Shown: positions 10,511-57,814 of the stretch, piece after piece
How positions within the stretch are numbered: the stretch's first letter is position 1
How the letters are laid out: the number at the start of each line of letters is the position of its first letter
Origin: an uncultured Candidatus Saccharibacteria bacterium
GTDB lineage: Bacteria > Patescibacteriota > Minisyncoccia > Phycocordibacterales > UBA2100
Length of the DNA: 64,000 nt
Direction of reading: 5' to 3'
Assembly: GCA_964623775.1 (NCBI GenBank)
Contig: CAZUVH010000001.1
Span: 220,784-284,783 of the forward strand
Made by a program: the position numbers and the translations under genes
Notes under the pieces: model-generated
Seen by the model: the letters and a program-made list of their open reading frames with translations, nothing else
Databases searched by the model: none
Told to the model about the DNA's origin: nothing

Positions 10511-10746
10511 ATGAGTGAAATGTCGAGTTTTTTCTGGATAAAGTATTCGGACTTGAGCGTCTTGTTGAGTTCTTTCCGTACCGCCTCCGTCTTCGCGTCG
10601 GATTCGATCATGGCGACGAGCGATTGGTGTTCATACTCGATCTTCTTTTCGAGTGCGTGGAGAAGGGCAGGGCTGATATCGCGCGCCACTGAGGCGAGCA
10701 TGTCGCGGCGTTGCTCCACCATCTTTTGTGCGTGAGCGTGTGTCAT
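10507..10746 (-). CDS. small helical protein (79 aa), translationally coupled on both sides
   Basis: Start overlaps the Clp-like stop (ATGA) and its stop overlaps the VirD4-like start (ATGA). Confidence 0.5.
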   Translation of the reverse strand: MTHAHAQKMVEQRRDMLASVARDISPALLHALEKKIEYEHQSLVAMIESDAKTEAVRKELNKTLKSEYFIQKKLDISLI

Positions 10747-37450: not shown

Positions 37451-39409
37451 ATGGCTAAGCCACTGATCGGTTTCATAGGTCAGGGATACATCGGTAAGAA
37501 TTATGCCGATGATTTTGAGCGTCGCGGATACGAGACGGTCCGTTATGCGCTCGAGGAGCCGTATCGCGCCAATAAAGAAAAGATCAAGGATTGTGATTAT
37601 GTATTTATCGCCGTACCGACCCCGACGACCCCGGAAGGTTTCAGTGCGCATATCGTAAAGGATGCGATCGGGCTTGTGGGAAAAGGTAAAACTGCCGTCA
37701 TCAAATCGACGATTGTTCCCGGCACCACCAAGAAGTTTCAGGAGGATTACCCGGATCGTACCGTCGTCTACTCGCCGGAATTTTTGAGTGAAGCGACAGC
37801 TGCACACGACGCAGCGCATCCCTACATGAACGTTGTTGGTCTTACGAAAGACACCGCGGAGCAAAAAGCAAAAGCCGCGGAAATTCACGCTATTCTTCCG
37901 GAAGCCCCTTTCTCGCACACATGTACGAGCACCGAGGCCGAGATCGTCAAATATTCACACAACGGCGCTGCATACACCCAAATTATTTTTTTCAATTTGA
38001 TGTATGAGCTCGCAAAGCAAAAGGGATGTGATTGGGAAGCCATTCAACAAGCACTCGAGCATGATCCGTGGATTCCGAGCAGGTACGCGCGTCCGGTCCA
38101 CAAAAGTGGGCGCGGCGCAGGCGGTCATTGTTTTATTAAGGACATAGCAGCAATTCGTCGTGAGTATGAGAAACATTTCGCAAACTCTTCAGGTGTCGCT
38201 GTGTTCGACGCGATGGAGAAGAAGAATATCGACCTTTTACGTTCTTCGGACAAAGATCTCGATCTCCTTTCGGATGTGTACGGAACTTCCGTTCTCGAAG
38301 GTAAATTCCAGAAGCAAGAAGTAGAGAAATTGAGTTCGCTACGCGGACACATGAAGGTGCTTGTCTGTACGGAAGCAATTGACCAGTCAGATCCGCTGCT
38401 CGGATTCTTTCATCGGTGGCTTGAGGAATTCGCCCGCCACGCGCATCGCGTGCACGTGATCTGCCTCGGCTACGGCGGGGGAAGATTGCCGGGCAACGTG
38501 ATCGAACATTCTCTCGGTAAAGAATCAATGACCGGTGCGCGTCTTTGGAAGCGCGCGCTCTACTCGCTGAAGCTTCTGCGTCACGCGTGGAATAACAGTG
38601 ATGATTACGAGACTGTCCTCGTTCATCTCTCGCCGGAATACCTGCTCGTCGCTGGTCTCTTGTGGCGCATGCTCGGTAAGCGCGTCGGCTTTTGGTACAA
38701 CGATAGTGAGGGCAGTTGGAGGGTGCGTGCGGCGATCTCGCTCGCCGACGTTGTGTTCTATTCGAATCCCGATTCTTACGCTGCAGGATATTCGCACGCC
38801 CGCAAGATACCAATGGGCGTCGACGTTGATATGTACGCCAAAGACCACCTGAGAGAGCCCGACTCACTGCTCTTCCTCGGACGCATCTCTCCGGCAAAAC
38901 ACCTCGACGAGGTCTTCAGGGCTCTCTCGAGGCTCAAGAAGCATTCGACGCTCGATGTATATGGGACACCGGGGCCGGGCAATGCCGATTATGCTCGCGA
39001 CCTCCAGGTACGTTTCCAGAGCCTCGAGAAGAGTGGCGCACTGCGCTATCGCGGTGCCGTAGCGCACGCAGAGACACCCTCTGTATATGGCACACATGAT
39101 ATTTTCATTCACACGGGTACGCTTCGCGGATTCAATAAGACACTCCTCGAAGCAATAGCGGCTGGAAACATCGTCGTCACCTCGGAGCCCAGTATGCGCG
39201 GTGTCGTCAGTGATTCCTTGTTTGTCAAAGAACCCACAGAGTCGGCGGTAGCGGCAGCGATCAATACCGCCCTCTCACTCTCTGAGACGCAAAAAAGTGA
39301 AGAGCGCTCTCGCTTACGAGCCTATGTTAGACGCGAGCACTCGCTTTCTTCGGTCGTGCCTGTCATGCTTGAAATGCTCGCGCGCCCAGGTGGTGAGGCG
39401 AATACCTAA
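37451..39409 (+). CDS. fusion: UDP-glucose/GDP-mannose dehydrogenase family (N-terminal ~300 aa) plus GT-B glycosyltransferase-like domain (C-terminal ~340 aa)
   Basis: IGFIGQGYIGKNYA NAD-binding motif, GGHCFIKD catalytic-Cys motif; C-terminal half (VLVCTEAIDQSDPLLGFFHRWLEEFARHAHRVHVICL...) is a paralog of the next gene. Confidence 0.65.
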   Translation: MAKPLIGFIGQGYIGKNYADDFERRGYETVRYALEEPYRANKEKIKDCDYVFIAVPTPTTPEGFSAHIVKDAIGLVGKGKTAVIKSTIVPGTTKKFQEDYPDRTVVYSPEFLSEATAAHDAAHPYMNVVGLTKDTAEQKAKAAEIHAILPEAPFSHTCTSTEAEIVKYSHNGAAYTQIIFFNLMYELAKQKGCDWEAIQQALEHDPWIPSRYARPVHKSGRGAGGHCFIKDIAAIRREYEKHFANSSGVAVFDAMEKKNIDLLRSSDKDLDLLSDVYGTSVLEGKFQKQEVEKLSSLRGHMKVLVCTEAIDQSDPLLGFFHRWLEEFARHAHRVHVICLGYGGGRLPGNVIEHSLGKESMTGARLWKRALYSLKLLRHAWNNSDDYETVLVHLSPEYLLVAGLLWRMLGKRVGFWYNDSEGSWRVRAAISLADVVFYSNPDSYAAGYSHARKIPMGVDVDMYAKDHLREPDSLLFLGRISPAKHLDEVFRALSRLKKHSTLDVYGTPGPGNADYARDLQVRFQSLEKSGALRYRGAVAHAETPSVYGTHDIFIHTGTLRGFNKTLLEAIAAGNIVVTSEPSMRGVVSDSLFVKEPTESAVAAAINTALSLSETQKSEERSRLRAYVRREHSLSSVVPVMLEMLARPGGEANT

Positions 39410-40457: not shown

Positions 40458-41993
40458 ATGCGATTTCTAAGGATCAACTGGTTGCCGCTCATTGTGGTTG
40501 GGATGGGTTTTTGCGCTTCACTCGCGCTTGCGCTCGCCCCCCTCAATTTTCTTCTCTTGAATACGATTCCAGATGATTCTTTTTATTACTTTCAGATCGC
40601 TCGAAATATCGTCCACGGCCTCGGCTCCACATTTGATGGGATAAATCTCACGAACGGCTATCACCCGCTCTGGATGCTCCTTCTTCTGCCAATATTTGCG
40701 TATTTTTCGTCACCTGTCGTAATGGATGTAGCGCCCATCCATGCCGCGTTGTCGCTCTCCGCGGTATTCAACGCCGGGATCGGATTGGTGCTTTTCGTAA
40801 TTATTTCACGATACACGTCGAACGCTTGGATAAAAGCTCTCGCCCTTGGTGCTTGGTTTTTCAACCCCTTCAATCTGTATTCGATGGCTGACGGGCTTGA
40901 GACGGCTCTTTCAATACTGCTCATCGCGTCATTTTTCCTCACCGCACTACGTTTTCAGGATCGGAGGACCTTGAGAAGCCTTGCCCTCGTGGGTGTTGTC
41001 GCAGGCTTTATGATGCTCGCGCGCCTCGATAATGTTTTTTATTTTCTTATGTTTCTCTCGTGGCTCGTATATGACGGTGGTATACGCGCTAGCATGCGCA
41101 ACGTACTGTTTGTCGGGGTCATTGCATCGATTGTTGTCTCGCCATGGCTCTTGTGGAATTTTTTCACGTTTGGCATGTTCCTCACATCTGCTTCCGCAGC
41201 ATATACGATCGTTAATCACCGAATCATCTATCAGGACAATGGGGAAACGCTTTTTCAGACATTGAAGGCCATCGTATTCATGACTGACTATTCACTGCGA
41301 CAATTTGTCATCCCACGGACAGGAGCGCCGTCAGTTTTCTTCACACTTCTCGGATTGACTGCGATTTGGTTTATGTTGGCTGAGGGACGATTACGCAGTT
41401 TCATTCGATCAATACCGCTCGAGCTTTTTCTCGTTGGGGGATGGGCGCTGATCTTCATCGCGAATGCCAGTATCCGATGGTCTCCTCGCGAATGGTACTT
41501 TGTCGCGCTCAACTTTTTTATTGCGATATGGATTGCCTGGCTTTTAGAAAAGTTACGGGAGAGCGGAAAGTTGCGCATGAGCTTGGTTGCGCTCGTCGCG
41601 TGCTTTGTCGCAGCGCTCTACTTTATAAGTTGGGAAAAATATCTTCACAACGCTTACAGTAATAGTCCGCAAGTCCTCGAAGCAACGCTCTGGATGAACG
41701 ACAATCTTCCAAAAGGCTCGGTCATTGGCGCCTTTAATGCGGGGATGGAGGGGTATTTTTCCACGAATCGTTTAATTAATTTGGATGGACTTGTGAACAA
41801 TGAGGCGTACGAGGCGATACGCGACAGGCGGCTGTGGGGCTATGTGAAAGAGGAGAGAATCGAATATCTCGCCGATCAAGGGAAACATGTCCAGTACCGA
41901 ATGAGAAGCTCTTTAGGTATTCCGAATGTTCTCGACGAGCTTGAAATTTTGCACGAGACAGCTGGAGGACCCGCTGTGTACAGGATCAAATAA
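40458..41993 (+). CDS. polytopic membrane protein, putative GT-C-type glycosyltransferase
   Basis: About 12 TM helices; DD motif in the first loop (IPDDSFYYFQIARNI) and a soluble C-terminal domain; the fold assignment is inference. Confidence 0.4.
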   Translation: MRFLRINWLPLIVVGMGFCASLALALAPLNFLLLNTIPDDSFYYFQIARNIVHGLGSTFDGINLTNGYHPLWMLLLLPIFAYFSSPVVMDVAPIHAALSLSAVFNAGIGLVLFVIISRYTSNAWIKALALGAWFFNPFNLYSMADGLETALSILLIASFFLTALRFQDRRTLRSLALVGVVAGFMMLARLDNVFYFLMFLSWLVYDGGIRASMRNVLFVGVIASIVVSPWLLWNFFTFGMFLTSASAAYTIVNHRIIYQDNGETLFQTLKAIVFMTDYSLRQFVIPRTGAPSVFFTLLGLTAIWFMLAEGRLRSFIRSIPLELFLVGGWALIFIANASIRWSPREWYFVALNFFIAIWIAWLLEKLRESGKLRMSLVALVACFVAALYFISWEKYLHNAYSNSPQVLEATLWMNDNLPKGSVIGAFNAGMEGYFSTNRLINLDGLVNNEAYEAIRDRRLWGYVKEERIEYLADQGKHVQYRMRSSLGIPNVLDELEILHETAGGPAVYRIK

Positions 41994-42012
41994 TTGTGGT
42001 ACGGTGCGGCCG

Positions 42013-43305
42013 ATGGTCCGATTCACCGAACTTGATCCGGCTGCCTTTAAGGGGGCGATTGTAATCGTGGATATCGACGGTACGCTCACGAACGATCGCA
42101 ATACGGAGGTTGACCAGACTGCGAAGCGTCAGCTTATGACTATCGCAGCGCAGGCGAGTGTCTACCTCTGCTCCAATAGCTCAAGTACCGCGCGATTTTG
42201 GCAGCTTGCGAGAGAGACCGGTACGGTATATCTCGGTACGACACTTCGAAAGCCCGACCCTCGTATACTGAAATTGATTCCTGACATCGCCGACAGACGT
42301 ATTGTAGTGATTGGTGACAAGCATCTGACCGATGGGCGGTTTGCGAAAAAAATCGGTGCCGAATTTGTGCACATCTCTCGCGTTACGCATGAGTCCGATC
42401 GGGCAGTGGTTACATTTACCTATCTCATTGACGATCTTTTTACCGCGGGCTTGCGTAAGCTTCACGTCGTCACCCCATATATCCAATTGATGAGGCCGAT
42501 GCAGTGGGTAAAAAATCTGCTCGTCTTTGCCCCCATATTTTTTGCGCACCAAGTATTCAATACTTCGATTCTCGCGAGTGGCGTGCTCGCATTCATTGTG
42601 TTCTCACTCTCTGCGAGCGCTGTATACGTGATGAATGATCTCGCGGACAAAGAGGGTGATCGCGCGCACCCGAGGAAGCGATTCCGTCCGATTGCCCGCG
42701 GTGCCGTCAACGAGACGAAAGCGACCGCGTTCATTGCAATGCTTCTTGCGGTTGCGGCGATTGCACTTGCATTCGTGCCTGCACTTTTGCCCGTGGCACT
42801 GATCTACTTTGGTCTGAATGTCATGTATTCATTCCGTCTCAAGCACGTCGCAGTAGTCGATGTGCTTCTTGTCGCGATCTTTTATATCTTGCGTGTGATT
42901 GCCGGTGGCATGGCCACCGACCTCCCGCTCTCGCCGTGGATTATCTTGTGCGTGCTCTTCGGTTCACTTTTTATTATTGTCGGAAAGCGTCGCGCCGAAG
43001 CACAGCTTACGTCAAAGCGTTCCGTTCTCGATTCATATTCTCCGCAAGCCCTCGATGCGATGCTTAATGTCACCGCGGGACTTGCGATAATCTCATACGG
43101 GCTCTATTCAATTCTCGGACACAACTCACCGCAGCTTGTCTATTCGACGATCTTCGTCGCGTTTGTTTTTTTGCGCATGCTCAATGATATCTACATGCGA
43201 CCGAGCGACGCCGAGGCCCCCGAGCTGCTTGTATTTAAGGACCGATGGATTCTTGCCTCCTTCGCGGGCTGGGTCATGTACGTGTTTTGGATTTTTTATT
43301 TCTAG
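42013..43305 (+). CDS. fusion: HAD-family phosphatase domain plus UbiA-family prenyltransferase (decaprenyl-phosphate phosphoribosyltransferase-like)
   Basis: N-terminal IVIVDIDGTLT (HAD motif I) and VVIGDK (motif IV-like); C-terminal RPMQWVKNLLVFAPIFFA, NDLADKEGD (NDxxDxxxD), HPRKRFRPIARG; 7-8 TM helices. Confidence 0.65.
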   Translation: MVRFTELDPAAFKGAIVIVDIDGTLTNDRNTEVDQTAKRQLMTIAAQASVYLCSNSSSTARFWQLARETGTVYLGTTLRKPDPRILKLIPDIADRRIVVIGDKHLTDGRFAKKIGAEFVHISRVTHESDRAVVTFTYLIDDLFTAGLRKLHVVTPYIQLMRPMQWVKNLLVFAPIFFAHQVFNTSILASGVLAFIVFSLSASAVYVMNDLADKEGDRAHPRKRFRPIARGAVNETKATAFIAMLLAVAAIALAFVPALLPVALIYFGLNVMYSFRLKHVAVVDVLLVAIFYILRVIAGGMATDLPLSPWIILCVLFGSLFIIVGKRRAEAQLTSKRSVLDSYSPQALDAMLNVTAGLAIISYGLYSILGHNSPQLVYSTIFVAFVFLRMLNDIYMRPSDAEAPELLVFKDRWILASFAGWVMYVFWIFYF

Positions 43306-43341
43306 CTTTTCATCCTGGTCGTAGTGCGCTACGCTGACGCA

Positions 43342-44379
43342 ATGGCAAGGTACTTCATCACAGGTGGCGCCGGTTTCCTCGGCATCAATATGGTGCGTCA
43401 TCTTCTCAAGAACGGACACCTTGTCACATCGTACGATCTTGCACCGTTTGACTACCCGGAGCGCGCGCATATAACCGAAGTAACGGGCGATATACGCGAC
43501 AAGGATAGGCTTGCGGCGAGCATGAAGGATATCGACATTGTCATTCACACGGCCGCGGCACTCCCGCTGTACTCAGCAGAAGATATTCGCTCGACCGATA
43601 TCGACGGCACACGCAACGTTCTCGAAGTAGCAAAGCAGAGTGGAGTTTCTCGCGTGATCCACATATCCTCGACGGCTGTCTATGGGATACCGGATCACCA
43701 TCCGCTGTATGAACACGATGCGCTCAAAGGTGTCGGCGAATACGGCAAAGCGAAAATTGCCGCTGAGGAGATCTGCCTTGAATATCGCAAGCACGGCATG
43801 TGCGTGCCCATTATCAGACCCAAATCATTCATCGGTCCTGAGCGGCTCGGCGTGTTTGCACTCTTCTATGATTGGGCAGCCGATGGTCATGGGTTCCCCA
43901 TGATCGGCAGCGGGCGCAATCGGTATCAACTCCTCGACGTTGAGGATTTGTGCGACGCGATCTATCTGTGCGCCACGAAGGACATGAATTCGGTGAATGA
44001 TACGTTCAACATCGGTGCCGAGGAGTTTACGACGATGAGGGAGGACTACCAGGCCGTGCTCGACCGTGCGGGTTTTGGCAAGAAGATTACCGGATTGCCG
44101 GCCGCGCCTGCCATATGGACTCTGCGCATCCTTGAGGCCATGCATCTCTCGCCGCTCTATAAATGGGTTTATGAGACCGCCTCGAAAGACAGTTTCGTTT
44201 CTATCGATAAGGCCAAGCATAAACTCGGCTTCAAGCCAAAATTTTCCAATAAAGACTCGCTGATACGCAACTACGAATGGTACGTTTCGCACCGCAACGA
44301 ATTCAAGAATGCGAGCGGCGTATCGCACCGCGTACCATGGAAGCAGGGGATTCTCTCCATTGCCAAAGTTTTTTTCTAA
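43342..44379 (+). CDS. NAD-dependent epimerase/dehydratase (SDR), candidate lipid-linked-pentose 2'-epimerase
   Basis: ITGGAGFLG, YGKAK (YxxxK); adjacent to the HAD-UbiA fusion; the epimerase role is inference. Confidence 0.6.
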   Translation: MARYFITGGAGFLGINMVRHLLKNGHLVTSYDLAPFDYPERAHITEVTGDIRDKDRLAASMKDIDIVIHTAAALPLYSAEDIRSTDIDGTRNVLEVAKQSGVSRVIHISSTAVYGIPDHHPLYEHDALKGVGEYGKAKIAAEEICLEYRKHGMCVPIIRPKSFIGPERLGVFALFYDWAADGHGFPMIGSGRNRYQLLDVEDLCDAIYLCATKDMNSVNDTFNIGAEEFTTMREDYQAVLDRAGFGKKITGLPAAPAIWTLRILEAMHLSPLYKWVYETASKDSFVSIDKAKHKLGFKPKFSNKDSLIRNYEWYVSHRNEFKNASGVSHRVPWKQGILSIAKVFF

Positions 44380-47219
44380 CCTTCCTTGCGACCAGTGACG
44401 ATAAAAAGCGCGCCTTCGTTGGCGATCGAGCTGAGCCAGGATATTTGCGTGGCTGCGCGAGCGACGCTACTTCCAGGCAAAGTCCGTTTAAACAGATCCT
44501 CACCGGTCTTACTGCCGTCGGTACCCATGATTGAGGGATATGCATTGAGATACGAGACCTTGTTCTCGTCGAACCACTCCATCACTTCACCTATTGAATG
44601 CCATGTTTCGTGCGGGTTGTAGTACTGGTCTTTGACCCAGATATCAGCCTTGCGAGCGTCGCGGATACGATTGCGCACGACGTAGTCGATCTTCGTGCCA
44701 AAGACTCTGATGAGCTTCGAGCGGATCCAGGTGGGGATTCGCGCGTAGCTGTTGTAGAGGCCAACGACGATGAGCCCGCCTGGCTTTGCCTTCTTCACAA
44801 TTTCCGCGAATGCTTTGCGAGCGTCTTTCGTATGGTGAAGTACGCCGGAGGAGATGACGACATCAAATGAATTGTCTTCAATGCCAAGATCGAAAATGTT
44901 CATTTGTACAAAGCCCACGCGCGGTACTGCGTTCTTGATCTTGTGATCGATCGCGAGTTTAAGGCTCGAAAGCGAAAGGTCGATGCCGAGGACGTGGTTA
45001 TTGTTGAGTGAGAGGAAGTGCGAGAGCTGGCCGGTACCGCATCCGCATTCGAGAACAAGTTTGTTGAAACCGATCGATTCAAGCAGGCCTTTGGCAAAAG
45101 GATTTTTCTCACCCCGGACGACGAGGTCTCCAAAATTTTGCACACCGTCGTAATTTGGGAATGGATTTTCTTCGTAGAACGCCTTTATTTTGCCCGTCAC
45201 GGGATCTTTCTCTTCCGAATCGATGCCAGTAAGGAGTGATGGCACACCGTCTTGATCACTAAGTCGTTTTCCTTTGGCATGGAAGGCGCCATCGGATCGT
45301 GTCACACTTGCGCCACCTAGATCCCGCGGCGTCTTCAAATGTTTGAGAAGTGGCTCCGGAATCAAGCCGTCTCCTTGTTTTGTACCCACTGCCAACTGGT
45401 CTTTCTTGAGCAGTACGACGTTGCCTATTACGAGAGCATCCATCTCTGTCATCATGAAACAGCGATATGCATCTTCCGGCGTCATTACGATTGGTTCGTC
45501 CCGGACGTTGAAGCTTGTGTTGACCACCACACCGTATCCGGTCAGTTTTTTAAATTCCTGAAGGAGACTCCAGAAGCGCTCATTCGTTTGTTTGGAAACG
45601 GTCTGAACGCGTGCCGAGTAATCAAGGTGCGTGACCGCCGGAATATCGGAGCGCAGGGCGTTGAGACGCTCTGTGAGCGAGCCGTCAGTTTTGCCCGGCA
45701 ATCGTCGCGACTTTTTTACCGGCACGGTGAAAAGCATGTAAGGCGACGTCCCTTTCATGTCGAAATACTCCGTTGCGTCCTCTTCGAGGACAGCAGGAGC
45801 AAATGGCCTGAAGCCTTCGCGGTATTTGATATCGAGATTCAGTTTCTTTTGCATGACAGGGCTCCGTGCATCGGCGAGAACACTGCGATTGCCGAGTGCG
45901 CGGGGCCCCCATTCCATCCTGCCTTGCATCCAGCCCACGATGTTGCCGTCAGCAAGGAGTTGAGCTGTTTGCGCGTACACCTCACCGACATCTTTGTGTG
46001 CCGTAAAATGTGCCCCAAATCTCTGCAGGATGCGCACAGTGTCGGCATCCTCGTATGAGGGTCCAAAATATGAGCCCGACATAGAGTCATGCTTGTCGAT
46101 CGTCCGTCTGCCATCAAAGGTGAGATAGTGGGCGATGAGTGCTGAGCCGAGTGCGCCGCCAGCATCACCAGCAGCTGGCTGTACCCACACGTGATCAAAG
46201 ATTCCCGCGTCACGGATTTTTGCATTAGCGACACAATTGAGGGCGACACCGCCTGCCATGACGAGGTTTCTCGAACCCGTAAGTTTTTTTGCGGTCCTCG
46301 CAAGGCGCAGCATCACTTCTTCCGTGACTTCTTGCGCAGCGAGCGCGAGATCCATATATTCCTCTTTGAGATCGTCGTCCGTTTTGCGTGCAGGGAAGCC
46401 AAAAAGTGCCTCCCATTTTTCGTCATTGACGGTGCGCAGTGTTGTCGCAAAAGTGAAATACGACATGTTGAGATAGAGCGAGCCATCGTCCTTGAGGTCA
46501 ATGAGCTCCTTGTAGATACGATTTTTGAAACTGAGCACACGCTCACTACCTTTTTTGCCGTACGGGGCGAGGCCCATGAGTTTATATTCGCCGTCATTTA
46601 TTTTGAAACCGCAGTAGTAGGTAAAAGCTGAGTAGAGGAGGCCAAGCGAGTGAGGAAAGTGCATCTCCTTCAATATCTCAATCTCCTTGCCCTTACCTCT
46701 GCCAATTGTCGTGGTCGCCCATTCGCCTACGCCGTCGACCGTAAGAATCGCGGCTTCCTCAAAGGGTGATGGGTAAAAGGCGCTCGCGGCATGCGAGAGG
46801 TGGTGCTCAGGAAAAAGGAGGCGTGGCTTACTCGGCAGCTTCCTGCCCTCTATCTTCTCGAGCTCTGAAATAAGGTTGCGGCGCGTGAAGATTTTTTCTT
46901 TGATCCAGATTGGCATCGCTCGTGTAAAGCTGACAAATCCTTGTGGCGCATAGCGATGGTATGTCTCAAGCAAACGTTCAAATTTGAGGATTGGCTTATC
47001 GTAGAAGACGATCGCATCGAGCTCGGAAGGCTTGAGACCATACTCTTCAAGCATCCAACGGACAGCGCGCGCGGGGAATGACTCGTCATTTTTCTTCCGG
47101 CTAAAGCGTTCTTCGCTTGCAGCCGCGACTATTTTACCGTCGATGAGGAGCGCTGCTGCTGCGTCGTGGTAGTAGGCAGAGATGCCCAGTATTACGGTTC
47201 TGCGGCTGGAAGAGTTCAT
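44376..47219 (-). CDS. fusion: NodU/CmcH-family carbamoyltransferase (N-terminal ~600 aa) plus class I SAM methyltransferase (C-terminal ~300 aa)
   Basis: ILGISAYYHDAAAALLIDGKIVAAASEERFSRKKND carbamoyltransferase N-terminus; C-terminal VLECGCGTGQLSHFLS and KPGGLIVVGLYN methyltransferase motifs; 947 aa. Confidence 0.75.
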   Translation of the reverse strand: MNSSSRRTVILGISAYYHDAAAALLIDGKIVAAASEERFSRKKNDESFPARAVRWMLEEYGLKPSELDAIVFYDKPILKFERLLETYHRYAPQGFVSFTRAMPIWIKEKIFTRRNLISELEKIEGRKLPSKPRLLFPEHHLSHAASAFYPSPFEEAAILTVDGVGEWATTTIGRGKGKEIEILKEMHFPHSLGLLYSAFTYYCGFKINDGEYKLMGLAPYGKKGSERVLSFKNRIYKELIDLKDDGSLYLNMSYFTFATTLRTVNDEKWEALFGFPARKTDDDLKEEYMDLALAAQEVTEEVMLRLARTAKKLTGSRNLVMAGGVALNCVANAKIRDAGIFDHVWVQPAAGDAGGALGSALIAHYLTFDGRRTIDKHDSMSGSYFGPSYEDADTVRILQRFGAHFTAHKDVGEVYAQTAQLLADGNIVGWMQGRMEWGPRALGNRSVLADARSPVMQKKLNLDIKYREGFRPFAPAVLEEDATEYFDMKGTSPYMLFTVPVKKSRRLPGKTDGSLTERLNALRSDIPAVTHLDYSARVQTVSKQTNERFWSLLQEFKKLTGYGVVVNTSFNVRDEPIVMTPEDAYRCFMMTEMDALVIGNVVLLKKDQLAVGTKQGDGLIPEPLLKHLKTPRDLGGASVTRSDGAFHAKGKRLSDQDGVPSLLTGIDSEEKDPVTGKIKAFYEENPFPNYDGVQNFGDLVVRGEKNPFAKGLLESIGFNKLVLECGCGTGQLSHFLSLNNNHVLGIDLSLSSLKLAIDHKIKNAVPRVGFVQMNIFDLGIEDNSFDVVISSGVLHHTKDARKAFAEIVKKAKPGGLIVVGLYNSYARIPTWIRSKLIRVFGTKIDYVVRNRIRDARKADIWVKDQYYNPHETWHSIGEVMEWFDENKVSYLNAYPSIMGTDGSKTGEDLFKRTLPGSSVARAATQISWLSSIANEGALFIVTGRKEG

Positions 47220-47238
47220 ACAAAGAGTCCGAGTCTGT

Positions 47239-47388
47239 TTAGAATATCGTGTAGATGAACGGTGCTACAGCCGATGACCCCGCGACCACAACAAGCGAAC
47301 CCGCGACCAAAAGCACAATGAGTGCCGGTAAAAGCCAAAATTTTTTCCGCTCCCTCAGAAATCCCCACATGTCCTTCAAAAAGTCCAT
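47239..47388 (-). CDS. DUF5989/SxtK-like small membrane protein (49 aa), not in the supplied ORF track
   Basis: MDFLKDMWGFLRERKKFWLLPALIVLLVAGSLVVVAGSSAVAPFIYTIF: a K/R cluster then TM then APFIYTxF is the signature of the small proteins that accompany SxtJ-like and carbamoyltransferase genes; 14 nt after the SxtJ-like stop, 20 nt before the carbamoyltransferase start. Confidence 0.55.
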   Translation of the reverse strand: MDFLKDMWGFLRERKKFWLLPALIVLLVAGSLVVVAGSSAVAPFIYTIF

Positions 47389-47402
47389 TGTATTTAAGTT
47401 AA

Positions 47403-47774
47403 CTAATAAGGCCTCTCAATTTTATCCGCTGTAGTCCATCCATTCCTGTCAACGAAGGCACTTGCTCGTTCCGGATGTGGCACGAGATCTCTCGCGTCGC
47501 CTTTTATGAAACGAAGCATGTAGCCGATCGGTGTAATAATCGCGAAAAAAACAAGACCAAAGAATATTTTGCTCACTATCTTTTGAAGAAGTTCAGCAAG
47601 CTTTAGCCATGCGTACCCGAGCGGCCATAAAACTTTCGGAAAAAAAAGGAGTGCTACAAGAATGAATGAGGTGGCTGCGAAAGCCCACGCCGTCCCTTTG
47701 TATCCAAAATAGAGAAAAATGAGAGAGAAGATAATCCCTGTGTCACGGACCCATTTTTCGTTCATTTCTGGCAT
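47403..47774 (-). CDS. SxtJ-like small membrane protein
   Basis: 123 aa, 3 TM helices; position upstream of the carbamoyltransferase with a DUF5989-like gene between, as in saxitoxin sxtI/J/K-type triads. Confidence 0.5.
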   Translation of the reverse strand: MPEMNEKWVRDTGIIFSLIFLYFGYKGTAWAFAATSFILVALLFFPKVLWPLGYAWLKLAELLQKIVSKIFFGLVFFAIITPIGYMLRFIKGDARDLVPHPERASAFVDRNGWTTADKIERPY

Positions 47775-47818
47775 GGCGAGAGTATAACAGGGGGGTTTTC
47801 TTTATCAAACGAGGCGGT

Positions 47819-49066
47819 ATGATGGCACACATGCGAAATTTTCTGGCGAACACGATACTCGTGCTCCTCAGTATTTTCGGGGCCATCGTTCTTGTCGATG
47901 TACTCCTCCACTTCTCGCAAGTCCAATATCGATACGTAAGTCCCCAGGCTCCGAAAGGGTACTTCCAGTTTGATCCGGAGCTCGGGTATGACATTGTCCC
48001 AAATTTCGCGACTAGCACGCACCGTTTCTCGGATTTGAATTACCCGATGTGGGGGAACTCGATCGGCTGTTTTGATACTGAATATGACGGTTCGACACCG
48101 TACATATATGTGGGCGGCGACAGTATGGCCTGGGGTTTCGCACGACTGGAGGATAAGTGGGGCAAGAAAGTTCAGAATCTGCTCGGTATTCGCACCGTGA
48201 CCTGTGGCGTCAACGGATTCGGGGCACGGCAAGAAGTGATCAAGGCGCGTCGCACGATTTCCAAATTACCAGAGCCTCCGAAAGTCATGATTGTCACATA
48301 CTTCAACAACGATGTCGGCGATGATACGGTGTTTCCGAATTACAACATCGTTGACGGGTACGTTGTGTTCGGACAGGGTCAATGCTCCTTGGAGCAAAAA
48401 TTAGAGATCTCGCCGCTTGAAGCTACGAGTACATGCAATGTTGCGCCAATGAAATATCCGTGGTTCCAGTATTTCAAATTCAAGCTCGGATTGAATTCCG
48501 TGTTATACAGCATGGTTTCGCAATCGTTTGGCAAAAAGATCAAAAGTGCTTTGCAGCCATACAAAGATCACCTGGGCTTTTTGAGTCCAATTTTTCCGTG
48601 GCTCGTACCGCCGAAGCCGACCGAGGTGGAGAAAGAGATTGCCGTGCAGCAGACCAACACCGACCTCGTGTGGAAATTCCACGAAAGTAACGTTCTCGCC
48701 ATGAAGAAACTAGCCGATTCGTACGGTGCGAAACTCATGTTCATTGTGATACCGGATGATGAGTCGGTGTATGCGACGAGTACGAAACCTGAGTGGATTA
48801 CGCAGCGAATGGTCACCTTCCTCAAGGCCAATAACATCCACCATATTGATCTCTGGCGGGATTTTCATGATCGTAATCATGGTAAAGAGCGTACGTTCTT
48901 CTGGCCGCTCAATGGTCACATCAATGTCGAGGGCAATCAATTGACCGGTCTGCTGGTAACGAAATACGTGCTTGAAAATCGATTGATCGATCTCGAAACA
49001 AGCGCCGAGATACTGAAATCGATCAATGAGGAAATTGACCGTGATTTTCCCGTTATCACGAAATAA
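47819..49066 (+). CDS. SGNH/GDSL-like hydrolase family protein, membrane-anchored
   Basis: N-terminal TM anchor; YIYVGGDSMAWG (GDS block); AGGCGG SD 3 nt upstream. Confidence 0.45.
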   Translation: MMAHMRNFLANTILVLLSIFGAIVLVDVLLHFSQVQYRYVSPQAPKGYFQFDPELGYDIVPNFATSTHRFSDLNYPMWGNSIGCFDTEYDGSTPYIYVGGDSMAWGFARLEDKWGKKVQNLLGIRTVTCGVNGFGARQEVIKARRTISKLPEPPKVMIVTYFNNDVGDDTVFPNYNIVDGYVVFGQGQCSLEQKLEISPLEATSTCNVAPMKYPWFQYFKFKLGLNSVLYSMVSQSFGKKIKSALQPYKDHLGFLSPIFPWLVPPKPTEVEKEIAVQQTNTDLVWKFHESNVLAMKKLADSYGAKLMFIVIPDDESVYATSTKPEWITQRMVTFLKANNIHHIDLWRDFHDRNHGKERTFFWPLNGHINVEGNQLTGLLVTKYVLENRLIDLETSAEILKSINEEIDRDFPVITK

Positions 49067-52170: not shown

Positions 52171-53261
52171 AAATTCTTTTTTCTGTACCACGATTCAGTG
52201 TAGGTGGTGCGGAAAAATTTCTCATACATCATCTCTCCTCGATTGACAGGGAGAAGTATGAAGTGACGCTCGTGACCATTTTCGACGAGCAAAAAGATTC
52301 TTCGTGCGCAGATCAGGTACATATCGATCATTGTTTCCGTGCACGTTCGACATGGGACTTCCGTGCATTTCTCAAGATGATTTCGTATGTAAAGGAGGGA
52401 CGCTTCGACGCCGTTGTCACCCACCTTTTTACAGCCAATTTGCTTATACGTATCGCGGCGATTGTCGCCCGGGTGCCGGTCATCATAAGTTACGAACACA
52501 ATATTTATCCCAACAAGCGGTATTGGCAGATTGTTGTAGACAAAATCCTTTCGTGGTTCACCGATCGCATCATCGTCGACTCCGATGCCGCAAAGACATT
52601 CACCGCAAGGCAAGAGTACATCCCGCTCAGAAAGTTTCTGACAATAATAATCCCGCCCCTCCTGGACGATAGACCGCGTCGGTCTCGTGACCAGGTACTA
52701 TCGGAGCTGGGAATTCCAAACGATGCGCTTATTGTTGTTACGGTGAGTCGCCTCGTCGTGGATAAGGGGCACAAATATCTAGTGGCTGCGACGCCAGAGG
52801 TGCTCAAAAAATATCCAAATGTCTATTTTCTCGTAGGGGGCTGGGGCCCCCTCAAAGAAGAGCTTGAGGCGCAGGTGAGGAGGCTTAACGTCGGCGAGCA
52901 TGTGCGCATTCTGGGCAGGGTAGATGGGCAAGAATTCACTTCAATTGCCGATCTCTACGTCGACCCCTCCATATCGACCGATCTCCCCATCGGCATCATG
53001 GAAGCAATGACAAAAGGTAAGGCGATTGTGGCCACGATGGTCGGTGAAATACCGAACTTCGTTCAGGATGGTAAAACTGGGCTCATCGTACCGCCCGCGA
53101 ATCCGTTAATGCTTGCGGCCGCCATTGACCGAATGCTCGGCGACGCATCGCTCCGAAAGCAATATGGGGCTGCAGCTAGGGTGAAAGTGGATGAATACTC
53201 TCTCGATAATTATATGCGGACATTTGATGAGCTGATATATGCGTTGGTACGAAAAAATTAA
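52167..53261 (+). CDS. glycosyltransferase family 4
   Basis: MKILFSV start overlaps the upstream stop as ATGA; LPIGIMEAMTKGKAIVATMVG EX7E region. Confidence 0.7.
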   Translation: MKILFSVPRFSVGGAEKFLIHHLSSIDREKYEVTLVTIFDEQKDSSCADQVHIDHCFRARSTWDFRAFLKMISYVKEGRFDAVVTHLFTANLLIRIAAIVARVPVIISYEHNIYPNKRYWQIVVDKILSWFTDRIIVDSDAAKTFTARQEYIPLRKFLTIIIPPLLDDRPRRSRDQVLSELGIPNDALIVVTVSRLVVDKGHKYLVAATPEVLKKYPNVYFLVGGWGPLKEELEAQVRRLNVGEHVRILGRVDGQEFTSIADLYVDPSISTDLPIGIMEAMTKGKAIVATMVGEIPNFVQDGKTGLIVPPANPLMLAAAIDRMLGDASLRKQYGAAARVKVDEYSLDNYMRTFDELIYALVRKN

Positions 53262-54906
53262 ATCATTTGCAAAGAGGGAGTGGCCTCTGCTCTCAATACT
53301 TGTACTTGCGTTCTTGCTCCGTGTAGTCGGAGTTGGGTATGGACTACCGCTCACGGTCGTCAATGATGAGACGCATTTTACTTTTGCCGCGCTCCAGATG
53401 ATGCAATCACAAACACTTATACCTGCGCTTCAGCCGGAATTTTTCCAGAGCATCCTCCCGTATCCCGTGTATCTTTCGTACATTCTCCTCATTCCGTTCG
53501 TGCTCATACTTGGATTCAAGTTTTTGCTTTGGCAGGGGAGTACAGCGATGTTGCAGGCGCATCTTCTCACGGACCTCTCGGTGTTCTTCATCACTGCGCG
53601 CTTATTTAGCGTGCTCCTCGGTGTACTTTCCGTTTATCTCGTATACCGCATTAGTGAAGCTGTATTCAGGTCGCGTGTAGCTGCTGCTGCAGCAGCTTTT
53701 CTGCTCTCGACGAGCCTGCTCCATGTAGCGCTCTCAATGGTGGGAAGAAATTGGATGCCGATATCGTTCATTTTCTTACTCGTCCTCTATGTGCTCACGA
53801 AAAGCGATTTGGGCGTACGTCGGCGATACCTGCTCGTTTTCATCATCGCGGGTATAGGTATGGGGATTTCGTCGTTCGTGGTACTCGCGCTCGTTATGGC
53901 GGGAATCTTCTATCTCCTATTTGACTCTGCGGGGCTGCGGCGGATACGGCAGGATTTGCCGCTCATGGGTCTCAGTGCGCTTATATTCCTTGCTCTTGCG
54001 GTCATCCCAAACTTTTTGTGGCGCTCGGGAAATACGTTTACGAAGGATATTTCGATTTATAATTCGAAGTCTCTCGTTGGATTCTTATCAAGTCCCTTAG
54101 AAACGCTCTCACAACTCGCATACTCGGAGACCGTCCTCATGAGCCTTTTTGTAGTCGGGGCAATTTTACTCTTCAGGCAGCATCGACGCTGGGTCGCCTT
54201 CCTCACTTCATGGTTTTTGCTCTATTCGTTCATTTTTTATTACGCGTTCAGGTTCGAGCCCCGATTTTTCTTGCCGCTTGTCCCTATTTTTGCAATCGCG
54301 GGCGGATACGCACTTTCACAGCTATGGGGACGACGCGCAGCATCTGTCCTTGCACTTGTACTTCTCTCCATTCCGCTTTTCGCCGCCCTTCGTCTATCGC
54401 AGCTTTCTCTGCAAGGGGACACGCGTGAGCAGGCGCGTGCGTGGGCGCTCCGGCATCTTGCGTCCGACGATAAATTGCTCGTGTATTCTTCAGCGCTTCA
54501 CATTCCGACTGATGCGGCTGCAGTTGAGGAGCTGAGAGCTATTGATCCAAACGCACTCCGTAAGATCGATGATGCAGATGCGACGCTTGATCGAAAAGAC
54601 AATTTTCACGTGCTCAACAATCTTACGTCGCTCATCGACACGCCATTCATGGTTGACTTGCCCACATATGCTCGAGATCAGGGATACGCGCATTTTCTTC
54701 TTGAGCCCCGTTCTCTCGTGGGTGCGGGAGCGACCACTACTGCGGCGCTCAACTCCTTGGTTAGTCGAGGCAATCTCGTGGCTCGTTTCGATGGGTTTGA
54801 TGCGCGCATGTCCATTTGGGAGAGTGCTTTCCTCGATTCCTTCATGCGATTATTTACTGACAAGATGTTGGGACCCGACATCTTTATATATGAACTTCAT
54901 AACTAA
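53239..54906 (+). CDS. GT-C glycosyltransferase (ArnT/PMT-like, GT39/83-type)
   Basis: VVNDETHFTFAA DE motif in the first periplasmic loop; about 11 TM helices plus a C-terminal soluble domain. Confidence 0.6.
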   Translation: MRWYEKIKSFAKREWPLLSILVLAFLLRVVGVGYGLPLTVVNDETHFTFAALQMMQSQTLIPALQPEFFQSILPYPVYLSYILLIPFVLILGFKFLLWQGSTAMLQAHLLTDLSVFFITARLFSVLLGVLSVYLVYRISEAVFRSRVAAAAAAFLLSTSLLHVALSMVGRNWMPISFIFLLVLYVLTKSDLGVRRRYLLVFIIAGIGMGISSFVVLALVMAGIFYLLFDSAGLRRIRQDLPLMGLSALIFLALAVIPNFLWRSGNTFTKDISIYNSKSLVGFLSSPLETLSQLAYSETVLMSLFVVGAILLFRQHRRWVAFLTSWFLLYSFIFYYAFRFEPRFFLPLVPIFAIAGGYALSQLWGRRAASVLALVLLSIPLFAALRLSQLSLQGDTREQARAWALRHLASDDKLLVYSSALHIPTDAAAVEELRAIDPNALRKIDDADATLDRKDNFHVLNNLTSLIDTPFMVDLPTYARDQGYAHFLLEPRSLVGAGATTTAALNSLVSRGNLVARFDGFDARMSIWESAFLDSFMRLFTDKMLGPDIFIYELHN

Positions 54907-55386: not shown

Positions 55387-56835
55387 CTACATCGTCCTCT
55401 CAAATCTGATGAGTCTCCGTATGTGCGGTAAAAGCATGCTTATGCCGAGGCCAGCGAGGAGTAAAAGAAATGGTTCCGCAACCATGCGATACCGCGTATC
55501 ATCGCTGATCGGGCCAATCATGAGTGCATATGCATTGATGAGGGCGAATGCGCAGAGGACCCAGAGCGCCTGTTTATCCCGTCGCTTTGTCCAGGTGTAG
55601 AGTGAAACCAGTGCCGCATAGAGCGCAGAAAGATACACGATGACCCATCCAAGCCGCTCCAGCAGTCGTGGAATATGTGTGAATGTCTGGACGAATGCCT
55701 CGTGCCAACGCTTTTGCGTGATGAGACCCCATGCGCCCTCTCCCCTCGGGGGATCGCCGTCCAAGATACCGAATTGATACATGTGGTATTGCACATTGAC
55801 GATGCTTGAAGTCACGAAGAGTTGTGCAGATTTAAAAAGATAGAATGCGACGAATTGGAAAGGACGTTCGACAATTCTTTCCATTGAGATTTCGTCGAGC
55901 CGCTCCACATATTGGAACTGTCGCAAAATTATTTCGTCGCTAGTCCCAAATTCGCGTTCACTGCGCACCCTCTGTATTTCCTGGTAATTGACACCAGTGC
56001 GGATTTGTTCAAGGAGCACCGTGTGGAACGCATAGAATTGCCATGCGCGCGACGAAGCAAACGCGAAATGACCCGCTTGGATATAGTTGCGCATCATCCA
56101 CGGACTCATTATCAAAAAAGCGGTAAAAAGGAAAATCATCGCGTTTCTAAGTGCGATTTTCCATGACTCTGAGTGCGCGAACGCCATGGCTGCAATAATA
56201 GGCGCGAGATAATATCCGACGGGACGTACGTAGATGGAGAGACCAAACAAAACTCCAGCAACGAGAACAGGCAGCCACCAACGTCGATGCGTGGCGCCGA
56301 TTGCGTACACGCTACCGATAAAAAGAAGCATAAAAAATGATTCACTGATCGGTATCCATGCAGCGTATATGACGATCGGGTCGATCATATAGATTAGAGC
56401 TGCAGCGAGCGCTATTGACCTTCTGAAATATCTAACACCAATCAGGTATATGAGTGCGACAGTGCAGGCCGTGAATGCTATTTGGAAGAACGGGACAATG
56501 AGTAATGTGCCGAACACCAGCATCACAAAAACAAAAAAAGCAGGGTATCCGGGTACGCGCCCAGCTTCGAGCGGGTATGAGGGCGAAACAGCGAAGCGGT
56601 GGTCGTTGATCATACTCTCCGCGAGATGTTTATATTCGATCGTGTCGGCGTAGTCTGGGAGTTCGAGCCCGATCATTTTTTCTGGCGAGGCACCGTTTGA
56701 CGATGCGATGAGAAAAAGTACGGTGAAGATAATGAGGTAGAGGAAAATACACGCACTCCCGAGGAGGCGCGCAATTTGCATGTCTGTGCGAGGTCGTCTC
56801 AAGATGCTAACGACGTCCATAAGGGTATCGGGCAT
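55387..56835 (-). CDS. GT-C glycosyltransferase-like polytopic membrane protein (PMT_2/ArnT-like)
   Basis: 482 aa, about 11 TM helices, periplasmic loop after TM1; within the glycosylation cluster. Confidence 0.5.
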   Translation of the reverse strand: MPDTLMDVVSILRRPRTDMQIARLLGSACIFLYLIIFTVLFLIASSNGASPEKMIGLELPDYADTIEYKHLAESMINDHRFAVSPSYPLEAGRVPGYPAFFVFVMLVFGTLLIVPFFQIAFTACTVALIYLIGVRYFRRSIALAAALIYMIDPIVIYAAWIPISESFFMLLFIGSVYAIGATHRRWWLPVLVAGVLFGLSIYVRPVGYYLAPIIAAMAFAHSESWKIALRNAMIFLFTAFLIMSPWMMRNYIQAGHFAFASSRAWQFYAFHTVLLEQIRTGVNYQEIQRVRSEREFGTSDEIILRQFQYVERLDEISMERIVERPFQFVAFYLFKSAQLFVTSSIVNVQYHMYQFGILDGDPPRGEGAWGLITQKRWHEAFVQTFTHIPRLLERLGWVIVYLSALYAALVSLYTWTKRRDKQALWVLCAFALINAYALMIGPISDDTRYRMVAEPFLLLLAGLGISMLLPHIRRLIRFERTM

Positions 56836-56839
56836 TGTA

Positions 56840-57814
56840 TCACTTCGTCAGGAAAATTCTCCAACTCATGCCTCGTCGTTGCGTCACTTGGTATTGGCTG
56901 ATTCCAGCTGACTCTAGCCAATCAGTGATATTGTCGCGCGAGATGTAGTGCGTGATCGGGGTGATCAATTGGTCGTAGGGGGTATTCCAAATTTCTTTGA
57001 AAGGGAAGTCGAACCACATATGCACATATGCAGCCATTGGCAGTTTTTCATACAGCTTCGGTGCTATGGCATGAATCGGTCGATAAACGAGTTTCGTTAC
57101 AAGGTATACCGGGAGTGTGATGAACCACGAGATAATGAGCAGCAGTCCCTCCGGTATTTTTGAGGTCACGTACCTTCGTAAAGGCTCGACGGTGTAGCGG
57201 ACAAGTCCGGTTCCCTCGTAGCCGTATACCCATACCGACATTGAGCCGCCTGGTTTGACCAGCGATACAAGTTTTAGAAAACCCTCTTTGGGATCTGGTA
57301 GGTGATGAAGCACTCCTACGCTGTATACATAATCAAAGCTCTCGGGTTTGAAGGGAAGTCGTCGTATGTCGCCGCGGATCAGTTGAATTTTTTCCGGATG
57401 CTTCGCGTGTGTGGGGATGTAGCGACGGGCGGACGCGATTGATCCCGTGCCGTAGTCAACCGCCGCGATCATCCTTGCACCAAAACTTTCGGCGATTACG
57501 GAGTGTTTACCCTTTCCGCACCCGGCGTCGAGCACTAATTTGTCTTTAAAAAACTCTGGCTTGACCGGATGTATCCAATCCAAGAACTGATCCCTGTATA
57601 TATCGTAATTATCGTCAAATTTTTCCCACTCATATCCAAATCTCTCGGCAGTCAGACTGCTTTGATCCTGGATTTCGTCCGGCACCATCATTGGCACTCC
57701 TTCTGTCACAGGGAAAGTTGAACTACAGTTACCGCATACGAACACCCCGCTCCCCATACGAAGATCACCCCTGCATTTCGGACAAGCAATCAGATCGATT
57801 ATTTCCTGTGTCAT
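56840..57814 (-). CDS. class I SAM methyltransferase with N-terminal Trm112-like zinc ribbon
   Basis: CPKCRGDL...CGNC zinc-ribbon; VLDAGCGKG motif I; LVKPGGSMSV. Confidence 0.65.
   Translation of the reverse strand: MTQEIIDLIACPKCRGDLRMGSGVFVCGNCSSTFPVTEGVPMMVPDEIQDQSSLTAERFGYEWEKFDDNYDIYRDQFLDWIHPVKPEFFKDKLVLDAGCGKGKHSVIAESFGARMIAAVDYGTGSIASARRYIPTHAKHPEKIQLIRGDIRRLPFKPESFDYVYSVGVLHHLPDPKEGFLKLVSLVKPGGSMSVWVYGYEGTGLVRYTVEPLRRYVTSKIPEGLLLIISWFITLPVYLVTKLVYRPIHAIAPKLYEKLPMAAYVHMWFDFPFKEIWNTPYDQLITPITHYISRDNITDWLESAGISQYQVTQRRGMSWRIFLTK

Follow-up and report, generated by a model that had tools for sequence, protein, structure and literature searches.

Why would a cell keep a carbamoyltransferase and a methyltransferase in a single polypeptide, beside two very small membrane proteins, and on which molecule would such an assembly act? 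The question is raised by a stretch of 64,000 nucleotides from an uncultured Candidatus Saccharibacteria bacterium (contig CAZUVH010000001.1), the whole of which we name the window in what follows. Three genes succeed one another there on the minus strand. They specify an SxtJ-like protein, a 49-residue protein of the DUF5989 family and a protein of 947 residues, CT::MT, which fuses an O-carbamoyltransferase (CT) to a methyltransferase (MT). A fourth gene, oriented divergently, codes for an SGNH/GDSL-like protein. The answer that we hold to be probable, while leaving real room for others, is that this cassette modifies a glycan of the cell surface, or the lipid-linked precursor of such a glycan, the most likely substrate in view of the genes that surround it.

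The fusion and its partners

In Pfam scans, CT::MT opens with Carbam_trans_N (residues 10-361, E 4e-89, 299.7 bits for a cutoff of 24), continues with Carbam_trans_C (residues 419-604, E 3e-72, 242 bits for a cutoff of 27) and closes with Methyltransf_11 (residues 723-819, E 2e-22, 80.2 bits for a cutoff of 21.2); four more MT models also match this C-terminal part (residues about 720-830). An earlier, sequence-only reading of the same DNA had proposed a carbamoyltransferase at the N-terminus and, marked by a GCGTG motif, a class I MT using S-adenosylmethionine (SAM) at the C-terminus. The domains agree with this proposal, and the motif lies within LECGCGTGQ, SAM motif I, at residues 723-731. 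Over its entire length, the CT part can be aligned with NovN (1e-91), GdmN and TobZ (3e-78). Its residues H139, H143, D162, D352 and H18 align with H133, H137, D156, D333 and H27 of GdmN, where the first four are iron ligands and the last is the general base (PMC9633730). All five are invariant in the 18 fused proteins that we aligned, and so are, in the YrdC-like domain, GPRALGNRS (residues 438-446 in the window), THxDYSARxQ (here THLDYSARVQ) and NTSFN; FRPFAP is a further motif of this domain. The MT region of the window protein displays FYEENPFPNYD, LECGCGTGQ, GIDLS, GVLHHT and DQYYNPHE; across the 18 proteins the invariant features are LECGCGTGQ, an acidic residue after strand 2, GVLHHT and a C-terminal DQYxHPHE. 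To judge from these domains and motifs, CT::MT is a class III O-carbamoyltransferase, as this class has been defined (PMC9633730), extended by a class I SAM methyltransferase. Since every catalytic residue is retained, it would complete the carbamoyl transfer by itself. Hydropathy analysis found no hydrophobic segment in it.

In distant fused homologues the linker between CT and MT carries four cysteines, arranged as a CPxC...CxxC ribbon of the Trm112p type, and one homologue (P0071) gives a faint Pfam match to Trm112p; the clade of the window has lost these cysteines. A second MT of the window (56840..57814, minus strand) has an intact N-terminal zinc ribbon of the same type, CPKC...CGNC, in a ribbon-plus-MT layout like that of the fusion. 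It was considered as a paralogue of the fused subfamily and rejected, as the two have just the core MT fold in common, with 33% identity over 108 residues.

Could the 947-residue frame be an artefact, an assembly error or a frameshift uniting two separate genes? It is true that CT and MT are separate genes in most relatives, and that the gene is broken by frameshifts in some metagenome-assembled genomes (MAGs) obtained from long reads. Yet the very same intact protein, 100% identical, is found in three independent assemblies, namely an NCBI contig of 352,595 bp and the assemblies of two independent SRA runs, while more than 20 fused database clusters have a conserved linker and an independent protein library holds eight full-length fused representatives. 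We rejected this explanation, which we find scarcely credible. The fusion is genuine and conserved: in answer to the checks that the sequence-only reading had asked for, the gene is unbroken and its fused form is kept in related genomes. Fused homologues with the same three-domain layout, 940-1000 residues long and present in several lineages, span 46-79% identity, with six clusters at 71-79% and more than 12 at 46-52%. Some of them carry only the name 'methyltransferase domain-containing protein'. Genomes of Spirochaetales, Fibrobacterota and Chromatiaceae contain fused genes. The best named relatives of the window's CT belong to Patescibacteria; by the MT domain, the closest species-representative genome is labelled Alphaproteobacteria. 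In two of the long-read MAGs, the frames of CT::MT (L007, 8034..10846) and of CT (L032, 11441..13485) are split into many short ones. This looks like an indel error of assembly rather than pseudogenisation, and it calls for caution when fusions are counted in such data.

Of the two small proteins, the 49-residue one matches DUF5989 (PF19451) over its whole length (residues 1-49 of 49, 87.4 bits for a cutoff of 27), with an E-value of 6.5e-25 that is far beyond chance, so that its assignment to this family, already suggested by the letters, stands. It had also been described as unannotated, which is not the case: public data already have the gene called, with PF19451, and NCBI names its relatives 'DUF5989 family protein', a name also given in the cultured Salidesulfovibrio and Pseudodesulfovibrio. 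Cationic at its N-terminus (RERKK), the protein crosses the membrane by one helix and ends with a conserved APFIYT[IL]F. Its profile retrieved at least 8000 clusters from many phyla, genome-reduced lineages included. Among the 120 profile matches listed, none is named SxtK; it is by size (54 residues against 49) and position only that the protein might be called SxtK-like. In the literature library searched, no paper was found that deals with DUF5989, nor any that deals with a carbamoyltransferase fused to a methyltransferase.

The SxtJ-like protein is a less straightforward case. With 20.3 bits (E 1e-3) it falls below the 24.4-bit cutoff of the Pfam SxtJ family (PF19588), and its orthologue in a close relative (locus L003) reaches 24.1 bits. 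It aligns, however, with two PF19588-positive proteins (BLASTP 8e-7 and 1e-6) that occupy the same position beside fused homologues, and it has in common with them a TPIG...R..G.D motif, followed by a charged C-terminal tail. The protein also has two or three hydrophobic segments. The identity advanced from the letters is thus sustained by alignment, position and motif, but not by the threshold of the family itself.

The divergent gene, absent from the earlier reading, codes for a frequent fourth partner of the cassette, and echoes the sxtI-J-K-L set of the saxitoxin clusters. Its 415-residue product, with a single N-terminal hydrophobic anchor, four conserved cysteines and a GGDS motif, is probably extracytoplasmic. 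It scores 18.9 bits against Lipase_GDSL_2, below the cutoff of 32.9, which its counterpart at locus L004 passes with 46.3 bits. In an alignment of five cassette partners, G100, S102, G130, N164, D165 and H367 are among the invariant columns; they cover the catalytic serine (the GDS of block I), the glycine of block II, the asparagine of block III and the histidine of block V. The corresponding profile matches genes following unfused CTs at 3e-44 and 2e-37. Pairwise BLASTP against positional counterparts was not significant (E 0.036-1.7); kinship with them is traced only at the level of motifs and profile. A word-indexed search returned five close relatives only, and the AlphaFold2 model is poor (pLDDT 49.8), so that the evidence from the fold is only suggestive: SGNH enzymes, or scaffolds that share their fold, make up nearly all of the significant Foldseek matches, which include PatB, a peptidoglycan O-acetyltransferase. 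CgnD, from the crocagin pathway, also appears among the top SGNH-like matches. Crocagin, a peptide natural product, is both carbamoylated and N-methylated, and this match may be a coincidence, or a further case of an SGNH protein accompanying carbamoyl and methyl tailoring.

How are these genes arranged? The ORF listing agrees with the earlier reading on all three minus-strand open reading frames (ORFs), the 49-residue one ending with APFIYTIF. Spacers of 14 nt (SxtJ-like to DUF5989) and 19 nt (DUF5989 to CT::MT) separate them, and a sequence scan revealed no terminator-like site between the three genes. Public gene calls start the SxtJ-like ORF 9 nt later, at 47765, which yields 120 residues. 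The promoter-like site listed in Table 1, as a match to the consensus, would possibly give rise to a leaderless SxtJ-like transcript; sites of this kind (two found, 4.6 expected by chance) are no commoner than in shuffled sequence. The SGNH gene starts 44 nt from the ATG of the SxtJ-like gene, on the opposite strand, which would imply a very compact divergent control region. Most likely, the three genes make a co-transcribed module, to which the divergent SGNH gene is added.

Table 1. Features of the carbamoyltransferase cassette and of the adjoining genes, in window coordinates.
Feature	Position	Strand	Size, basis and remarks
SxtJ-like small membrane protein	47403..47774	-	123 aa; ORF, sub-cutoff Pfam SxtJ, BLASTP, alignment, hydropathy
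DUF5989 protein	47239..47388	-	49 aa; Pfam PF19451, alignment, hydropathy; sits at the position of sxtK
CT::MT (O-carbamoyltransferase fused to SAM methyltransferase)	44376..47219	-	947 aa, soluble
Kae1-like acceptor/transfer domain (Carbam_trans_N)	46137..47192	-	Pfam; aligned with GdmN and NovN structures
YrdC-like adenylation domain (Carbam_trans_C)	45408..45965	-	residues 419-604; Pfam, alignment
Linker with degenerate Trm112p-like ribbon	45231..45347	-	residues ~625-663; alignment of fused proteins
MT region, cassette-specific subfamily	44379..45281	-	residues ~647-947; Pfam, alignment, AlphaFold2 model and Foldseek
Promoter-like TTGATA-16-TATACT, extended TG	47781..47808	-	consensus match; 7 nt separate its end from the ATG at 47774
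SGNH/GDSL-like protein	47819..49066	+	415 aa; weak Pfam, motif alignment, profile, hydropathy
HAD-IIIA::UbiA polyprenyl-phosphate phosphoribosyltransferase and SDR epimerase/dehydratase family	41926..44379	+	convergent; Pfam, NCBIfam

The methyltransferase subfamily and its cassettes

Does the MT belong with the CT beyond the fused gene itself? A profile of its C-terminal 308 residues, searched against 1.84 billion representative proteins, matched only 389 clusters at E<=1e-30. The best 150 of the 389 comprise eight full-length fusions and about nine apparent fragments of fusions, the others being stand-alone proteins of 300-350 residues. With the same profile, loci were fetched from species-representative genomes, and their six-frame ORFs were scanned with hidden Markov models built in this analysis for the CT, MT, SxtJ-like, DUF5989 and SGNH proteins. 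A CT is fused to the MT, or lies within a few kb, at 21 of the 24 loci that have a full-length MT match; a neighbouring gene is the commoner arrangement, and SxtJ-like and DUF5989 genes are nearly always present at these CT-bearing loci. The order of the genes varies (J-K-CT-MT, CT-J-K-MT, J-K-MT-CT or CT::MT-J-K, where J is SxtJ-like and K is DUF5989), and so do the hosts, which belong to Acidobacteriota, Nitrospirae, Bacteroidetes/Ignavibacteria, Omnitrophota, Planctomycetales, Spirochaetales, Fibrobacterota, Proteobacteria and Peregrinibacteria. The MT is a small dedicated subfamily tied to CT cassettes, a point that the earlier reading had not made. As this subfamily comes with CT, SxtJ and DUF5989 genes at so many loci, the fusion marks a functional link between the two enzymes. 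And since it is almost confined to such cassettes, the MT probably recognises the carbamoylated product, or else prepares the acceptor.

Fused forms are spread over at least three to four separate clades of a rough neighbour-joining tree without support values, and the CT domain of the window scores higher against unfused CTs than against the other fused ones. The fusion would therefore have arisen, or have been split, more than once, which appears as the classic signature of two activities bearing on one substrate. There is a very large number of unfused CTs that are 62-71% identical to the CT domain of the window; they form a large uncharacterised environmental clade. All five that were examined have an SxtJ-family gene and a 49-residue DUF5989 gene directly upstream. 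It had been proposed that triads resembling sxtI/J/K accompany carbamoyltransferases elsewhere; they do, both next to the fused homologues and next to these unfused enzymes.

The AlphaFold2 model of the MT domain is of moderate quality (pLDDT 65). Nearly all of its 50 best listed Foldseek matches are proteins of the class I MT fold, the best structural matches including the sugar O-methyltransferases RebM and AtmM, with TM-scores about 0.45.

One bare SxtJ-DUF5989-CT triad, devoid of an SGNH gene (L091, 1408..9023, in a genome of 6.9 Mb), is located directly downstream of genes for a GlmS-like amidotransferase, a 439-residue protein, a member of the amino-acid-kinase family (which includes carbamate kinase) and a member of the OTCase family. 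These neighbours suggest a local supply of carbamoyl phosphate and a link with amino sugars.

Glycan surroundings and the possible substrate

What, then, might be carbamoylated? Pfam and NCBIfam were run on every ORF of 110 residues or more that was judged to be a gene between 34.6 and 64 kb, and on ten of the large ORFs lying below 28 kb. Beyond about 34.6 kb, and as far as the window extends, nearly all genes pertain to sugar metabolism. We find there glycosyltransferases (several GT4, one GT2 and three GT-C/PMT_2), methyltransferases (one of the FkbM type and two others) and further sugar-modifying genes, for an AsnB-type amidotransferase, a polysaccharide deacetylase and SDR epimerases/dehydratases. 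The operon does lie inside a glycan cluster, as had been read from the sequence. Only sugar-pathway, cell-wall and housekeeping families were seen in the scanned ORFs, which contain no saxitoxin scaffold gene (sxtA-type polyketide synthase-like, amidinotransferase or dioxygenase), no polyketide synthase and no nonribosomal peptide synthetase. Elsewhere, sugar genes also surround the cassettes at L003-L005, L087 and L088, and distant cassettes are found amid dTDP-sugar enzymes, Wzy-like proteins, AsnB and deacetylases. With glycosyltransferases, GT-C enzymes and a polyprenyl-phosphate phosphoribosyltransferase around the operon, carbamoylation and methylation of a sugar make the best reading.

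The process would probably run as follows. In the cytoplasm, the YrdC-like domain would form carbamoyl-AMP from carbamoyl phosphate and ATP, if it behaves as its solved homologues do. The Kae1-like domain would pass the carbamoyl group to a hydroxyl of the acceptor, by way of its iron centre (H139/H143/D162/D352) and of the base H18. The methylation of that substrate by the fused MT would be coupled to this transfer, and would take place at an adjacent position or on the carbamate just formed. Because CT::MT is without hydrophobic segments, while the SxtJ-like protein has two or three and the DUF5989 protein has one, together with its cationic N-terminus, the small proteins would tether the enzyme: they may be obligate partners, keeping soluble CT::MT against the cytoplasmic side of the membrane. 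On the opposite side, the SGNH protein, anchored in the membrane, might serve as an esterase or an editing enzyme.

A different division of labour can be conceived, on the model of O-acetylation systems (PatA/PatB, OatA). There, CT::MT would merely activate the carbamoyl group, SxtJ and DUF5989 would relay it across the membrane, and the outward SGNH protein would be the true transferase, acting on an extracytoplasmic polymer. Its membrane anchor, conserved cysteines and probable outside orientation fit such a role, as do the presence of PatB among its fold matches and its frequency in cassettes. The relay is nevertheless disfavoured by the retention of all catalytic residues of the CT, whose acceptor-side machinery (H18 and the iron site) is complete, and by the existence of SGNH-free triads; moreover the small proteins do not approach the size of MBOAT or AT3 translocators, and the SGNH model is of low confidence. 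We deem it highly unlikely.

Tailoring of a glycan by CT::MT itself has its own weak points. The glycan substrate is a putative one, read from the genomic context. The fold matches of the MT are generic and do not fix its substrate; three of the 24 MT loci have no CT in their flank, one of these lying at a contig end that comes 318 nt after the MT gene. The SxtJ assignment misses Pfam's own cutoff and draws on secondary evidence, while that of the SGNH protein draws on motifs, on a profile built here and on a poor model; this protein, missing from three bare triads, is not universal. The linkage with the UbiA and SDR genes considered below is confined to close relatives. Some triads have no sugar genes nearby (L006, L090), and the saxitoxin copy of the cassette is thought to act on a soluble alkaloid, so that the cassette would not be intrinsically specific for glycans. 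The earlier proposal of sugar O-carbamoylation plus methylation consequently stands as regards enzyme domains and glycan setting, and is weaker as regards the substrate.

These last points lead to another possibility, that of a cassette tailoring a diffusible small molecule in the manner of saxitoxin, aminoglycosides or ansamycins, with glycosyltransferase genes nearby by coincidence. All solved or characterised relatives (NovN, GdmN, TobZ), and SxtI as well, act on secondary metabolites, and the bare triads located away from glycan genes would find an explanation. It is difficult, on the other hand, to reconcile this with a window whose scanned 28-64 kb part is devoid of scaffold genes and with neighbours nearly all in sugar pathways, at the window as at the five other loci just listed; and a DUF5989 family of at least 8000 clusters over many phyla, genome-reduced ones included, would be atypical for a specialised metabolite. 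We consider this possibility distinctly unlikely.

A more precise acceptor is suggested by the convergent genes, where the end of the SDR gene overlaps that of the CT::MT gene by 4 nt. The HAD-IIIA::UbiA protein scores 212 bits, for a cutoff of 207, with NF008978, the equivalog of decaprenyl-phosphate phosphoribosyltransferases. With the three GT-C genes of the same cluster (40458..41993, 53239..54906 and 55387..56835), this pair looks like a lipid-linked pentofuranose donor pathway; the mycobacterial decaprenyl-phospho-arabinose route is the pathway that the set resembles. The acceptor might be a polyprenyl-phosphate-linked monosaccharide made by the pair and modified on the cytoplasmic side, SxtJ and DUF5989 binding or flipping the lipid carrier, after which the modified sugar would be flipped and used by the GT-C enzymes. 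A soluble CT::MT with membrane partners suits this scheme, and the pair, which abuts the operon, is syntenic with it at L001 and L003. It is so there only, being absent from all more distant cassettes, and when 19 neighbours in the window were compared by phmmer with all fetched loci, strong matches came only from L003, the close relative. The link is therefore lineage-specific, and the pair was rejected as a component of the cassette. Besides, small proteins with merely one and two or three hydrophobic segments make poor candidates for such a task, and the triad of the saxitoxin cluster would be left unexplained. This specific acceptor seems to us rather unlikely.

Several other genes of the window deserve mention. 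A 652-residue protein (37451..39409, plus strand), which has a counterpart of 651 residues at L003 (14282..16237), combines partial N-terminal and central domains of UDP-glucose/GDP-mannose dehydrogenases with a GT4 domain; its dehydrogenase part seems truncated (profile 71-184 of 187) and may serve for binding instead of catalysis. Within the glycan cluster, a 583-residue protein (57900..59651, minus strand) whose repeats are of the fibronectin type III and Ig-like types may be a surface protein, possibly a target of glycosylation or a glycan-binding component. The upstream part of the window harbours murA, murD and murC. It also harbours two genes for VirD4/TraD-like coupling proteins and one for a ClpB/ClpA-like ATPase, short (552 residues) and without its N-terminal half; these are listed together at 9236..10510 (minus), 25905..28139 (plus) and 10743..12401 (minus). 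The 26-28 kb bin has the highest GC content of the window (0.587 against about 0.50), and the whole may be a mobile or secretion-related region. The Rfam scan of the window found only a tRNA-Leu.

The cassette among known systems

The link between the triad and a CT is already known at the level of annotation, and fused proteins are present in public databases. What is new is the variant architecture, the dedicated MT subfamily and the recurrent SGNH partner. Split equivalents of the fusion exist in many phyla, a point that the earlier reading had also not made. The fused gene ties MT to CT, and offers a single polypeptide in which to study coupled carbamoylation and methylation. Carbamoylated surface glycans have rarely been sought, and this gene signature would make them findable, as +43 Da, or +57 Da with the methyl group, in cultured carriers of the triad, among which is a Salidesulfovibrio-type genome.

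With the antibiotic-tailoring enzymes TobZ, GdmN and NovN, the window protein has in common a two-domain organisation, Kae1-like plus YrdC-like, aligned over full length, and identical iron ligands and general base. Carbamoyl-AMP chemistry is therefore expected of CT::MT, by homology with TobZ and GdmN. Those enzymes differ in that they act alone on antibiotics, the papers that describe them mentioning no SxtJ or DUF5989 partner. GdmN has a C-terminal dimerisation domain where CT::MT has its linker and MT, and the window's CT is far closer (62-71% identity) to the uncharacterised environmental clade than to any of the three.

A comparison with Nod factors had also been made. NodU, which carbamoylates, and NodS, which N-methylates, decorate the same terminal sugar of these molecules, and the association of a NodU/CmcH-family CT with a SAM methyltransferase is indeed alike. 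They are separate proteins, however, without SxtJ or DUF5989 partners, and orthology must be rejected on both sides: the NodU model (NF041651), although the best NCBIfam match of CT::MT, gives 167.3 bits for a cutoff of 1000, and the NodS model (PF05401) gives 11.8 bits for a cutoff of 24 (E 0.21).

Other cases are analogies of function only, with no sequence kinship beyond the CT family (for NovN) or the generic MT fold. Noviose, the work of NovP and NovN, is a single sugar that bears an O-methyl together with an O-carbamoyl group. In WbdD a kinase and a methyltransferase are fused, and the enzyme caps the terminus of an O-antigen glycan; that CT::MT might similarly terminate or cap a chain is speculation.

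The closest parallel is that of saxitoxin. In its clusters, sxtI (the carbamoyltransferase), sxtJ, sxtK (54 residues) and sxtL (a GDSL lipase) stand in this order and fall into one phylogenetic class of origin. SxtI has been proposed to act together with SxtJ and SxtK, all of them biochemically uncharacterised in reviews and preprints through 2025-26, and a preprint cites GPRALG(N)RS as its putative catalytic motif. The window cassette would mirror this set: in both, a class III CT of about 610-630 residues with the same motif adjoins an SxtJ-family membrane protein of about 125-135 residues and an ORF of about 50, with a GDSL/SGNH protein of about 400-430 residues alongside, the SxtK and SxtL parallels being those of position, size and family label. 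It differs in its order, J-K-I with a divergent SGNH gene, in the MT at the C-terminus of its CT, in a neighbourhood free of saxitoxin scaffold genes and in its context of glycan synthesis.

May all these cassettes be one thing? SxtJ, DUF5989 and CT, with SGNH and MT as options, could constitute a single widespread membrane-associated machine for the carbamoylation of envelope glycans or of the lipid-linked precursors of these, a machine of which sxtI-J-K-L would be a co-opted copy, the MT perhaps N-methylating the new carbamate; we offer this as a doubtful, if attractive, conjecture. An N-methylcarbamoyl sugar may be the outcome, and we know of no description of such a sugar in bacterial glycans. 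Ever since the description of the saxitoxin cluster, nothing more has been said of SxtJ and SxtK than 'unknown, probably work with SxtI'. The same small proteins accompany a highly conserved CT in thousands of protein clusters, over many phyla and mostly in sugar clusters, and the cassette would thereby give access to what SxtJ and SxtK do in toxin-producing cyanobacteria.

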